From Octopus vulgaris (taxonomy: Eukaryota): DNA of 64,000 bases. The stretch lies in the NCBI GenBank assembly GCA_951406725.2, contig OX597829.1, forward strand, positions 52,824,001 through 52,888,000, written 5' to 3'. Every line of letters starts with the position of its first letter. The stretch's first letter is position 1. Shown here piece after piece: positions 4,923-63,000 of the stretch. Below the pieces are notes generated by a model. The model was not told the origin of the DNA and ran no database searches. It was given only the letters and a program-made list of their open reading frames with translations. The translations under genes were made by a program, and so were the position numbers.

Positions 4923-5025
4923 GACGGAGTAGTTAGCTGGCAACATCATTTTTTCTACAAGGATTTCCTGAAGAAAGGTTTCTAGCCCTGAAATATTGAA
5001 ACACAAGGTAAAACTACTAACCGTC
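4923..5025 (+). ncRNA. Candidate minimal type-I hammerhead ribozyme
   Basis: UUUC-CUGAAGA(4968-4974)-A-AGG..CCU-GAAA(4990-4993)-UA-UU-GAAA; distal pairing GACGG-AGUAGUU / AACUACU-AA-CCGUC. Confidence 0.5.
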
Positions 5026-25606: not shown

Positions 25607-25945
25607 TTAGCCAAACAATTTTGTGTAAATGTGATGAAATTCTTCTGTCATTTCATTCATTCCTTCAGGGCAAGATGTTTGTAATTTACAAATACATTTG
25701 TCCTCATGCATTTTGAGGGCTGAAAGTGTAGTAGATTCCAAATATTTTCTGAGAATCTGCACTTTCAGGAGTTCCTCAAAATTGCAGCCATTTGATGTAA
25801 AATGTTTGGCAAGTTCTGTCCAACTACTGTTATTGTGCCTGATGTCATATCTGTGCCCTTTGAATCTTTTCTCTAATCGTTTTGTTGTAAAACCAACATA
25901 AATCAAGTTGTGTTTGGTGCATTCTGCTGTGTGTACCAAATGGGG
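25607..25945 (-). pseudogene. Penelope-type GIY-YIG endonuclease C-terminal fragment
   Basis: VHTAECTKHNLIYVGFTTKRLEKRFKGHRYDI..TELAKHF..LKVQIL..HEDKCICKLQTSCPEGMN; no RT upstream. Confidence 0.88.
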
Positions 25946-26205
25946 AATCTTTACATGCCTGACCTTCCATACAAAATTATGACATTTCTGTTATGATTCA
26001 CAATGGAACTGACTTGACTCATGTTGTTGCAAATAAACAGGGCTTACCTCTCTAAAACTATGGCTTTAAGTCCAATATAAAATTACATCTAGTTTTTCAA
26101 AAACTACTATTGATTATTGAAAGCTTGTGGGTAACTAAAATTACAGTTAGCAACCGGCTACCCATGTAAATTTTACCAGGAATAAGAACAAACCTGAGTC
26201 AAATC

Positions 26206-36006: not shown

Positions 36007-36676
36007 GCTGCATCAAACTCTGTTGTCAGATTTGGCATTGTCTCTATGATCGGATACTCTTCCGAGCACCAACCTCTTTACAGTCAGTGTGTGCTGGGTG
36101 CCTCGTTTCATGCTACGGACACTCAGAGGTAACCAAGTAACTTTCATAACAGAAATAGAAGAGGATGAAGGAAAAAGCCTCTTTGATTAAGCAGAGGTAG
36201 TATTTGAGACTCTGCTGAGTGGTGAGAGGTTAAAGTATGTGAGAGGAGAGATGTCTTGCTATTAAGGAAACACATGGCTAACCCTCGCTGTATAAGGGGT
36301 TGTATAATGCATAAGGAAATATGGTGTCCTTACCAGCAATTAATATATATGTACAAGTTGTCATAAATGTGTTTAATATTTAACATTGGTCTATCCAATT
36401 GCAGTTCACAGCCAGTTGCTGTTTAAGGTGGTGAGCTGGCAGAATCATTAGCAAACTGGAAGAAATGCTTTGCAGTATTTTGCCCATCACTCTGTCCTGA
36501 GTTCAAAATCTGCTGAGGTCGACTTTGCCTTTCATCCTTTCAGGGTTGATAAATTAAGTACCAGTTGCATACTGGGGGTGGTCTAATCAACTGGCCCTCT
36601 CCCCCAAAATTTCAGGCTTTGCGCCTATAGTAGAAAGGATTTAAGCAGTGAGTTTGTCGATGGTTAATGGTTAATG

Positions 36677-36730
36677 GATGTGGTGCTGAAGAAGGAGCAA
36701 AGCCTTCTGAAATATGCATATACACCCATC
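36677..36730 (+). ncRNA. Type-I hammerhead ribozyme with intact core
   Basis: GAUG-U-GGUG-CUGAAGA-AGGAG-CAAAGC-CUUCU-GAAA-UAUGCAUA-UA-CACC-CAUC: 8 bp stem I, 5 bp stem II, palindromic stem III. Confidence 0.75.
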
Positions 36731-36747
36731 ACCTATTTTCACTGTGT

Positions 36748-37090
36748 GGAGGCGCAATGGCCCAGTGGTTAGGGCAGTGGACTTGCTGTCATAAAATCAC
36801 GGTTTCGATTCCCAGACCGGGCGTTGTGAGTGTTTATTGAGCGTAAACACCTAAAGCTCCACGAGGCTCCAGCAGGGGATGGTGGTGAGCCCTGCTGTAC
36901 TCTTTCACCACAACTTTCTCTCACTCTTTCTTCCTGTTTCTCTTGTACCAGTGTCATGTTGAATATCCCAGAGAACTACGTTAAGGGTACACGTCTGTGG
37001 AATGCTCAGCCACTTGCATGTTAATTTCATGAGCAGGCTGTTCCATTGATCGGATCAACTGGAACATTTGTCATCATAAACAACAGAATG
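36748..37090 (+). mobile_element. tRNA-head SINE (family C variant, chimeric body)
   Basis: GGAGGCGCAATGGCCCAGTGGTTAGGG A box, GGTTTCGATTCCC B box; 3' part shared with 31770-31870 and 63790-63930. Confidence 0.85.
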
Positions 37091-60095: not shown

Positions 60096-63000
60096 ACCTT
60101 TGGAATTTAAACCAGCAAATCCATCTCAAATATTGTACCTGTTTTATGTTCAACCTGCCAAATTTTCTTTAAAATACCACCCTAATAATTTTAAAACATA
60201 CCTGTAATTTTAAAACCTGTAAAACATACCTGTAACACTTTCAGATTACTCTGTCAAATGTAATGCTTCTTTGTTCACATTCTTCGCAACTAATCATGCA
60301 TTATCCCCAGTGTGAGATTTCGATGATGTGATTATTTATTTTTAGAACGGCATTGTAGGGTAGATGTGAAAGGCCAGATCTGTCCAGTTTAAACATAAAA
60401 TATTAGAATTTTAGAGCTTGATATGACCAGTCCAAAGGTTAAAGAATTAAGCTTTACTCTGTCAAATGACAGATTACTCTGTCAAATGACATATTACTCT
60501 GTCAAATGTAATGTTTATTTATTCACATTGCTTTGAATTAATCATGCATTATATCATAATTTCAGGATTTTGATGATGTGATTATTTACATTCCAAATTA
60601 CATTGTAGGGTATGTGTGAGAGGCTGGATATGGGCAGTTTGAATATAAAACAGCCATAATATTTGGGCTGTATATAGACAATCTAAATGTTAAATGGTTA
60701 ATATACACAGAATGACCTAATACTAAATATTATATTTGAGAAAAGAAAAGAAACTAGTCAAACATTATGTTTCTGCCTCAGAAATATTTTTCACAAGTGA
60801 AAGCCACCAGTGAATCATCTGCACAAAGCAAGTTCTGAGGTACCTTTATATGTTTTATGAAGTCTATAACATTCTGGTACATCAACATCATCATCATTAT
60901 CATCATCATCATTTGGTGTCTGTTGTCCATACTGGCATGGGTTAGATTGCTTGACTAGGCTAGCGCTCTGGAAGGCTGCACCAGACTCCAGTCTGATTTG
61001 GCATGGTTTTCTACAGCTGGATGCCCCTCCTTATGCCAACCACTCTGAGAGTGAAGTGGGTGCTTTTACATGCCACTGGCATGGGTGCCATTTGCATGAC
61101 ACTGGTATCTGCTATGACTGCAATTTTGCTTGGCTTGACGGGTCTTCTTCTCAAGCATGACATAATACCAAAGGTCTCAGTCATTGCCTCCATGAGGCAT
61201 TTGGCATTATGTCATGCTTGAGATGACAAACCAGGTACAAGTATGACTGATTGGTAAGATGTTTACGTTCCATCTATATGGTTCTGGGTTCAGTCCCACT
61301 GAGTAGCATCTTAGACACATTTGTGTGTATTTATGTATAGTCTGTACATGTATGTATATCCTTGTGTATGTGTTTGTGTGTATCTCTCTCTCTCTCTCTC
61401 TGTCTGTTTGCGTGTGTGTGTGTCTGTGTTTGTGTTTGTATGTGTGTGTATGTATTTATGTGTGTATATTTATGTAGTCTGTACATGTATGTATGTCTGT
61501 GCATTTGTGTTTGTTTCTTACCACTGCTTGACAACCAGTGTTAGTTTGTTTATGTCTCTCAAAACTTCGCAGTTCAGTAAAAGAAACTAACAGACTAACA
61601 GAAGAGACTACCAAACTTAAGAAAAAAACAAAGATCAGTGGTTGATTTGTTTGACTAAATCCTCCAAAGGTAACACCCCCAGTATGGCTGCTGTCCAATG
61701 ACTAAAACAAGTAAAAGATAAAAGACTAAATGTTAAAGACAAAAGAAAAAAACAAAAACAAAAGATGCATGATATTCACTAAAGCAATGCTTGAGGAAAC
61801 TTTCTTGCCACCAGAACAGAAAGCACACAGCTTTCCAGATTATAGTCAAGCAAGATTAGACAGATCCCGTTTAGACTAAAATGGTCTTGTAACATGCATA
61901 AGATCCTGTATAGAATATACAAAACACAAATGACATTAGCAAACAAAGAGGAAAGGACACCGTTCTGGAAATGCAGGCTTTCATAATAAGGCTAACAAAT
62001 CACACATTAGTATAATAGTTTTTAATGGTGTTAATTACTGTTTCTAATATTCATTTAGTTTTTGGTGGCAAGCTCCAGAATCGTTAGCATGCTGGGGTAA
62101 GTTTTGTGATGCATGTGGAAGATGTTCGGAAAGGGTCGATGGGCCTTGCTTTTGCGGTCCATATTTGTACTGAAAATCGAGATCGAGCGAGCTTTTGCTC
62201 TTTACTTGTGTGAGTGTGTGTGTGTGTGTGTGTTTGAGTGTGAGTGTCTGTGTGTGTGTGTGTGTGTGTGTTTGAGTGTGAGTGTGTGTGTGTGTGTGTG
62301 TGTACGTGTGTGTGTGTGTGTTTGAGTGTGAGTGTGTGTGTGTGTACGTGTGTGTGTGTGTTTGAGTGTGAGTGTGTGTGTGTGTACGTGTGTGTGTGTG
62401 TGTTTGAGTGTGAGTGTGTGTACGTGTACGTGTGTGTGTGTGTTTGAGTGTGAGTGTGTGTGTGTACGTGTGTGTATGTGTGTGTGTGTATGTGTGTGCG
62501 CATTTGTTTAGACATCATGTAATGGTTGTAAATGAGCATCATCATCATATAGGTGAGGTTGTTCACTTCCAGTCTTCTGTGAAAGACACGTCCAATCACA
62601 CACACACATCCACATACACACATATGAGATAGGTCTTCACACAGTTTCTGTAAAGTAAATCCACTGACAAGGCTTTGATTGACCCATGGCTACAGTAGAA
62701 GAGAGCTGCCCAAGTTGTCATGCCATGGTTGGCAAGGAGGCTTCTCAACCACACTGCCATTTCTGTACCTGCATCGGAACTCACACCATCACCATCACCA
62801 CCACCAATATGGTAAATGCAGAATATCAACAACTATTGTAGTCTAGTTGACCTCTCCTTGCTCATCACCGATGTGGTCACCACCAGAGCTTGTAGGATAA
62901 CGAAAATAGACTGAACAGAGGAGATAAGAGGATGTGTTGTTGGCTGGTTGTGACATGGCACACTATTACACTTCGTTAATGATATTCTAACCTCATAAGA

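Follow-up and report, generated by a model that had tools for sequence, protein, structure and literature searches.

A preliminary description of a 64,000-nt stretch of the Octopus vulgaris genome (hereafter the window; GenBank assembly GCA_951406725.2, contig OX597829.1, positions 52,824,001 to 52,888,000 of the forward strand), made from its letters alone, had reported a compact and fully intact hammerhead ribozyme lying isolated between two SINEs, and had taken the scarcity of flanking element sequence as a sign that its function might have been retained. The question is whether a self-cleaving RNA has been kept by the octopus at this locus or whether the motif is a leftover of mobile DNA. 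Most likely the locus is an ordinary fossil and not a retained functional ribozyme. With a probability of roughly four in five, the hammerhead resides in a decayed, SINE-interrupted copy of an ORF-less repeat family with a unit of ~420 bp, likely a non-LTR retrozyme mobilised by proteins of Penelope-like elements (PLEs); by prediction this copy misfolds, and it has likely lost its function.

The motif itself is real, as every core residue and three helices can be found within 54 nt of the plus strand (36677..36730). Stem I is formed by GATG-t-GGTG (36677-36685) and CACC-CATC (36723-36730), and the core C3-U4-G5-A6-N7-G8-A9 reads CTGAAGA (36686..36692), coinciding with the core columns of the family alignment A1 (see below). 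Stem-loop II (36693..36708), located by folding and alignment, pairs AGGAG with CTTCT (36693-36697 and 36704-36708), including one G.U pair, around the loop CAAAGC; its base is A10.1-U11.1, the usual pair at this place in hammerheads being G10.1-C11.1, and its family-majority letters also occur in contigs from other species. GAAA occupies 36709-36712, and since U16.1 is 36721 and A17 is 36722, giving the cleavage triplet AUA, the cut is predicted after 36722, in agreement with the position read from the sequence in the preliminary description. Accordingly, a type I hammerhead with three helices, helix I being open-ended, can be drawn for 36677-36730 with CUGANGA, GAAA and UH all present. A strict descriptor matched the window once and none of 60 Markov-shuffled windows, both strands being scanned. 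An Rfam search of the window gave no match of any kind at the gathering score and no hammerhead at E ≤ 10 around the site, and this absence carries no weight against the motif. The palindrome ATATGCATAT (36712..36721, plus strand) offers a weak, all-AU stem III in the monomer and, in the dimer, a 10-bp intermolecular helix with a predicted energy of -9.5 kcal/mol. The palindromic, dimer-type stem III proposed earlier therefore stands, matching the metazoan type I design as set out in part of PMC4209133, with the length of the palindrome to be given as 10 nt.

The two SINEs flanking the motif are likewise real, their depth in four runs being thousands of times that of the unique flanks. SINE 1 (36428..36639, plus strand) lies 5' of the hammerhead between 6-bp target-site duplications TTTAAG (36422..36427 and 36640-36645), and SINE 2 (36746..37094, plus strand) lies 3' of it between duplications of 11 bp with one mismatch (36735-36745 and 37095-37105); no tRNA genes were found by ARAGORN. 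However, the assertion that little flanking element remains fails, as the host element runs on past both SINEs, collinear with its paralogues. The host copy comprises ~340 bp on the plus strand, spread over about 36299-37210 and split into three pieces: a 5'-truncated 5' part (36299..36421, model positions ~273-403, from BLAST to paralogues; 36299-36415 in the family profile), a middle part with the hammerhead (36641..36745, model ~1-98, from the paralogue alignment; 36641-36740 in the profile), and a 3' part (37095..37210, model ~94-210, from BLAST; 37097-37230 in the profile) that ends near the family's site A (see below), the profile that maps these collinear pieces including the window copy itself. 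Of 29 other loci, 14 are matched by BLAST in their portion upstream of the hammerhead (query: window positions 36298-36401) and 16 in their downstream portion (query: 37094-37210), as counted by hand. Because the collinear pieces continue beyond the SINEs, each of which has its own target-site duplication, both SINEs must have entered a pre-existing copy of ~340 bp. The isolation is thus an illusion created by two later insertions, and with it falls the retained function that had been deduced from it. SINE 1 differs from the majority of its SINE family at 36 of 214 columns, which suggests that the host copy, as judged by this divergence, may be old; for SINE 2 the family comparison covers only 30 of 346 columns. 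The copy itself amounts to less than one unit with one hammerhead, and shows no inverted arm and no clear target-site duplication of its own.

The family to which this copy belongs was delineated by DNA searches of the octopus's own genome (2.8 Gb in 227 contigs). The first gave 676 candidates, of which 40 were scored, namely the window and 39 others matching at 82-87%; the second, with a complete unit from locus L028 as query, yielded 1561 candidates, with matches of 71-87%, mostly 73-83%, bar L028 itself and L033. The 19-mer of the window over the core occurs exactly 35 times in the genome (reversed control: 0) and is carried by a single copy among the 30 of the second sample; the copy number follows as ~1,000-1,500 from this share and as ~1,500 from per-column rates, both estimates being rough. 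Of 56 distinct loci, 55 contribute the 62 hammerhead regions of alignment A1, five duplicate fetches having been dropped from 61; the alignment contains L033, which is not independent of L028 (~91% duplicate). As the 2.8 Gb contain a family-typical 44-mer a single time and a 31-mer four times, and as the median pairwise identity of the 62 regions is 77%, no young, near-identical set or expansion can be seen; the family is old and appears extinct. The preliminary description had looked to conserved paralogues: paralogues do exist, at least in the hundreds, but as degraded members of a mobile family they are no sign that the locus itself is conserved.

The unit has a length of ~420 nt, a G + C content of 28-35% and one hammerhead, and with a longest stop-free frame of 33-61 aa in three natural units it is ORF-less. 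Of 64 hammerhead-bearing chains, 16 exceed one period and continue into the same unit without an ORF, and two hammerheads follow each other head to tail in L028, L003 and L033; no long or young tandem arrays were found among the copies examined. The sense strand of four aged natural units, folded as circles, yields z scores of -0.6 to -1.9 against 30 shuffles each, a fold just slightly better than that of the shuffled sequences. L028 and L033, which lie ~0.87 Mb apart on contig C29, share a duplicated segment of 1094 bp with 91% identity overall, of which a 421-bp upstream part is 98.8% and the unit 87-89% identical, so that gene conversion or an assembly mosaic is possible. The contigs of runs from three further organisms include 74-109 pieces of at least 90% likeness. 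One run, guessed to be RNA, contributes four short paralogue-like contigs, 90-95% alike and none of them window-specific, in a type of data, contigs, that shows no RNA ends.

The designation of the window copy as fully intact does not survive folding either, at least as predicted by a nearest-neighbour model, which ignores tertiary contacts, Mg2+ and proteins. The active fold lies 5.5 kcal/mol above the predicted minimum free energy (MFE) structure and has a predicted P of 5e-5; in the latter, a shifted stem II pairs 36690-36695 with 36703-36708 with a probability of 0.96-0.99 and traps N7, G8 and A9. In alignment A1, the window departs from the majority at 36703 (C instead of the A of 56 of 62 copies) and at 36706 (T instead of the C of 52 of 62). 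Each of these two changes adds one Watson-Crick pair to the shifted stem II, and the shifted register is therefore favoured: the predicted mean probability of the correct register is 0.02 for the window and 1.0 for the family-majority sequence, versus 0.97 and 0.0, respectively, for the shifted one. The correct register is predicted with a probability above 0.5 in 36 of 62 copies, and the window ranks 52nd of the 62; by the energy gap to the active fold, on the other hand, it belongs to the better copies, ranking 12th of 53 gap-free ones. A third change, C at 36730 (T in 54 of 62 copies), strengthens stem I, for which pair probabilities of 0.7-0.8 are predicted in the window, and a 2-nt insertion relative to the paralogues is found near 36673, upstream of the hammerhead. 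The copy is thus predicted to be misfolded by its own mutations at 36703 and 36706 and would not be fully intact.

The change at 36703 may have a second consequence. Loop II ends with an A in 56 of 62 copies, and 58 of the 62 retain the U located seven bases after the cut; pairing of a loop II A with a U at this distance has been described as rate-enhancing (PMC9217987, in the part available). By analogy, such a contact may have existed in the octopus repeat family, and the change to C would remove the A. A distal extension of stem I, joining columns 28-32 to 94-98, is paired in 86% of cells, but it is one candidate among others for the structure of loop 1, since a different pairing, located upstream, competes with it in the MFE structure as predicted.

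It is conceivable that the hammerhead, as an unselected fossil, still cleaves weakly in vitro, either in monomeric form at high Mg2+ or as a dimer formed in trans via the palindrome, a reading that is compatible with the fossil nature of the locus. The full core, the AUA triplet, the strong stem I and the perfect palindrome with its predicted duplex all speak for such residual activity, but the predominance of the shifted stem II and the all-AU stem III argue against it, and single metazoan hammerheads of such design cleave poorly or not at all according to parts of PMC4209133 and PMC7229834, so that even weak cleavage is rather unlikely. The hammerhead of an anole PLE was found to cleave only with its protein (PMC11167929). 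In the 64-kb window the family profile detects no second hammerhead of the same family as a partner for dimerisation, the next best match having an E value of 0.71; this weak match (62516-62620, minus strand) extends over most of the hammerhead region, is CA-rich and is probably due to chance. A minimal-hammerhead-like motif (CTGAAGA, short stem II, GAAA, 2-nt loop III) at 4968-5000 on the plus strand matches a relaxed descriptor and could represent a PLE end or chance.

How the family may have been mobilised can be read from the ends of its copies. Their 3' ends cluster at two places of the model ~120 nt apart, site A at ~195-222 and site B at ~318-345. Both strands of the element are present at 28 of 58 loci, 27 of these being arranged head-to-head; where both outer ends could be classified, i.e., in 14 of the 27, site A is paired with site B without exception (14/14, p 6e-5), the other 13 having one or both ends outside the two classes. 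Both directions occur, with the main arm ending at A and the inverted arm at B, and the reverse. The 14 A+B insertions are flanked by short direct repeats, somewhat longer than in the control, of 8.9 nt on average versus 7.2 in mismatched pairs, and repeats of at least 10 nt are found in 4 of the 14 versus 4% in the control. An inverted pseudo-LTR (pLTR), a tail on one arm and a target-site duplication of 8-10 bp constitute the Penelope layout in the part of PMC3846280 consulted, and inverted pLTR, tail on one arm and a 9-bp target-site duplication are also called typical of Penelope in an excerpt of PMC8557442; the tail has been accounted for by two internal start sites of reverse transcription (PMC11167929).

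In comparison with EN+ PLE insertions as described in these three sources, the first two in part, the octopus copies are alike in their 5' truncation, in an inverted arm placed head-to-head, in a pair of 3' ends of which the extended one is confined to a single arm, in AT-rich ends, in the location of the hammerhead inside the copied part and, apparently, in flanking repeats of ~9 bp. They differ in the lack of an RT/GIY-YIG ORF, in a unit that repeats on itself, and in the length of the extension, which is ~120 nt versus 30-40 bp in PLEs. On this sequence evidence, the retrozyme family is probably best regarded as a non-autonomous Penelope-like derivative, which for want of an ORF cannot be placed amongst the autonomous PLEs and yet would seem to insert like them.

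The genome holds many ORFs with RT and GIY-YIG domains, many of them of 781 codons. Nevertheless, none of the 30 GIY-YIG loci fetched (of 150 scored) carries the hammerhead or the unit and could be the autonomous partner, and no RT/GIY-YIG ORF was found in or beside 56 family loci. This bears on an alternative according to which an extinct autonomous PLE left the family behind as its pseudo-LTR stub, the window copy being a 5'-truncated end of such an element. Inverted arms, a tail-like pair of 3' ends and short target-site duplications are indeed PLE hallmarks, and other PLE families of this genome carry hammerheads downstream of their GIY-YIG domain (relaxed-descriptor matches at 10 of 30 GIY-YIG loci). 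In contrast to what would be expected of a stub, the over-long copies mentioned above run into the same unit and not into an ORF, and the upstream flanks of the family loci share only inverted arms, SINEs or a duplication. In addition, a tblastn search with the proteins of the GIY-YIG loci against the 56 family loci yielded nothing but an unrelated neighbour ~870 nt off, encoded on the opposite strand, a search covering 30 GIY-YIG loci and 1.5-kb flanks that a distant or extinct clade could escape. Such an origin is consequently improbable.

Several further PLE-related observations were made. At L068, L069, L071, L072, L075, L080, L086, L087 and L091, a hammerhead-like motif with a U3-A8 core (TTGATAA ... 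GAAA catg T) lies approximately 440-1000 nt downstream of the GIY-YIG match; a U3-A8 covariant core has been reported for Schistosoma PLEs in the part of PMC4209133 concerned with these elements. Since many of its genome matches lie in identical-scoring ORFs of 781 codons, this hammerhead-bearing PLE family looks young. L073 (~3014) and L080 (~3237) each have, on the minus strand and thus opposite to the GIY-YIG ORF, a type I hammerhead motif, the two being distinct in sequence. In the window, a decayed GIY-YIG remnant (25607-25990, minus strand; Pfam E 0.0013, below the cut-off; 24.5% to a PLE protein by tblastn), at a distance of 10.7 kb from the hammerhead, is likely to derive from another Penelope-like element.

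For the non-LTR retrozyme preferred here, the following course of events may be envisaged. Source RNAs consisting of tandem or circular units would have cleaved themselves after the AUA triplet, presumably best as dimers via the 10-nt palindrome, a design as in the part of PMC4209133 referred to above. A PLE protein with reverse transcriptase and GIY-YIG domains, acting in trans, may then have started cDNA synthesis at two internal sites of the RNA and inserted 5'-truncated and often inverted copies. More specifically, though tentatively and with somewhat less than an even chance of being right, the circular or tandem RNA might have been copied by a Penelope protein dimer that primed at two fixed internal sites ~120 nt apart, one for each arm of an inverted insertion. 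Having one hammerhead and less than one unit, the window copy would have been dead on arrival and would have drifted since, later receiving the two SINEs and the misfolding mutations.

If the copy has drifted, the survival of its core calls for an explanation, and this can be found in the family. The core is intact in 39 of 62 copies, and in 16 of 30 in the second sample. The core together with a 4-bp stem I and a 5-bp stem II is present in 7 of 62 copies, and with a perfect palindrome in addition in 3 of 62 (hand count), the window being among these better copies. Across the copies, 37 core changes are seen where non-core columns matched for base would lead one to expect 70 (P 0.0008 by column permutation), and 21 where 44 would be expected in the second sample (P 0.002); pure post-insertion drift predicts intact cores in 29% of copies versus the 53-63% seen. 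N7 and one position of loop II do vary across the copies. As the core has been kept beyond base-matched expectation, the ribozyme must have mattered to the source elements. We read this conservation as the probable result of selection on many source elements during the activity of the family, which would be compatible with later constraint on some copies. The core of the window copy survives because intact cores are common among the copies and because only intact ones could attract the notice of a reader of the sequence. Immediately before the core, two bases (A1 columns 42-46, window 36682-36685) decay like an ancestral CpG, with many TA and CA variants, and this decay breaks the first pair of stem I in 25 of 62 copies.

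These data also allow for an assessment of co-option by the host, in which the hammerhead would cut a pre-mRNA, a lncRNA or a SINE read-through transcript. The hammerhead of the window is better kept than its own flanks, differing from the family majority at 4 of 52 positions versus 45 of 219 (Fisher p 0.02). However, 13 of 53 loci pass the same test, with the window in 7th place, and 34% of 59 other copies equal or surpass the window in closeness to the majority, in a sample of which half of the loci were recovered with the hammerhead region as query and for a finding that was itself picked for looking intact. A Pol III read-through RNA is conceivable, as the hammerhead is closely preceded by SINE 1 in the same orientation and followed, at 36736, by a T4 run, which acts as a Pol III terminator, but another T4 run within SINE 1 at 36478 would halt the polymerase earlier. 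Furthermore, among 87 of the 118 open frames of at least 90 codons in the window no Pfam match reached the cut-off and no host exon was recognised (short exons would escape), and both the lack of a second family hammerhead within 64 kb and the predicted misfolding weigh against a function. Contigs from three other organisms cover the unique flanks with few differences (36248-36453, 36262-36487, 37071-37400 and 37128-37400), the SINEs swamping the tables. None of the contigs listed spans 36641-36745, and at 90% likeness 36641-36672 is uncovered in four runs, a hole in coverage that is no proof of absence. Altogether, the cutting of a host transcript at this locus, which if true would be a rare instance of a molluscan host co-opting a ribozyme, is very improbable. 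A mere chance resemblance to a hammerhead, in favour of which the missing Rfam match, a folding z of just -1.9 and base-pair covariation in the helices not above shuffles (41-266 of 500), as is expected for drifting copies of related sources, might be adduced, is largely refuted by the shuffled windows, by the pairing of 85% of cells in the named structure across 62 copies versus 32-50% for slid controls, and by core columns that are kept beyond base-matched expectation while N7 and the loop II position vary.

The octopus repeat is accordingly to be considered a new family of a known kind, the non-LTR retrozymes. With the metazoan members of this group, as portrayed in parts of PMC7229834 and bioRxiv 10.64898/2026.07.22.740005, it has in common one type I hammerhead per short, ORF-less and AT-rich unit, the occurrence of tandem or partial-tandem besides many solo copies, and the co-existence of autonomous PLEs. 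Mussel retrozyme units are given there as 350-390 bp and retrozyme units in general as 170-400 nt; at ~420 nt the octopus unit is slightly above this range, and its G + C content agrees with the reported <45%. In contrast to these retrozymes, the family is one without long or young arrays found, appears extinct and is known here from DNA copies. Its hammerhead resembles the metazoan type I hammerheads covered by the accessible part of PMC4209133 in the conserved core, the short helix III and the palindromic loop favouring dimers, and differs from them in the A-U pair at the base of stem II, a 4-bp proximal stem I with a bulge and, in the window copy, the predicted misregister of stem II. No octopus retrozyme was found among the papers listed by literature searches, as judged by titles and the beginnings of abstracts, and the word 'octopus' is absent from the main texts of three key papers, PMC7229834 and bioRxiv 10.64898/2026.07.22.740005 among them; supplements, Repbase or Dfam may already list the family.

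With respect to the locus, the window demonstrates how a fossil ribozyme can take on an appearance of isolation and conservation through SINEs that were inserted later. With respect to the family, metazoan non-LTR retrozymes are now argued to be non-autonomous PLE derivatives (bioRxiv 10.64898/2026.07.22.740005, in part), and the retrozyme papers, as far as their text was available, argue for this link from shared hammerheads, co-occurrence and phylogeny. The strict pairing of sites A and B in an ORF-less hammerhead repeat ties the spread of retrozymes to two-start-site Penelope reverse transcription, A and B being the two sites that a PLE protein would need to recognise in trans. If true, priming at two sites would provide direct, insertion-level evidence that animal retrozymes hijack the PLE machinery, the tail being three to four times as long as those known.
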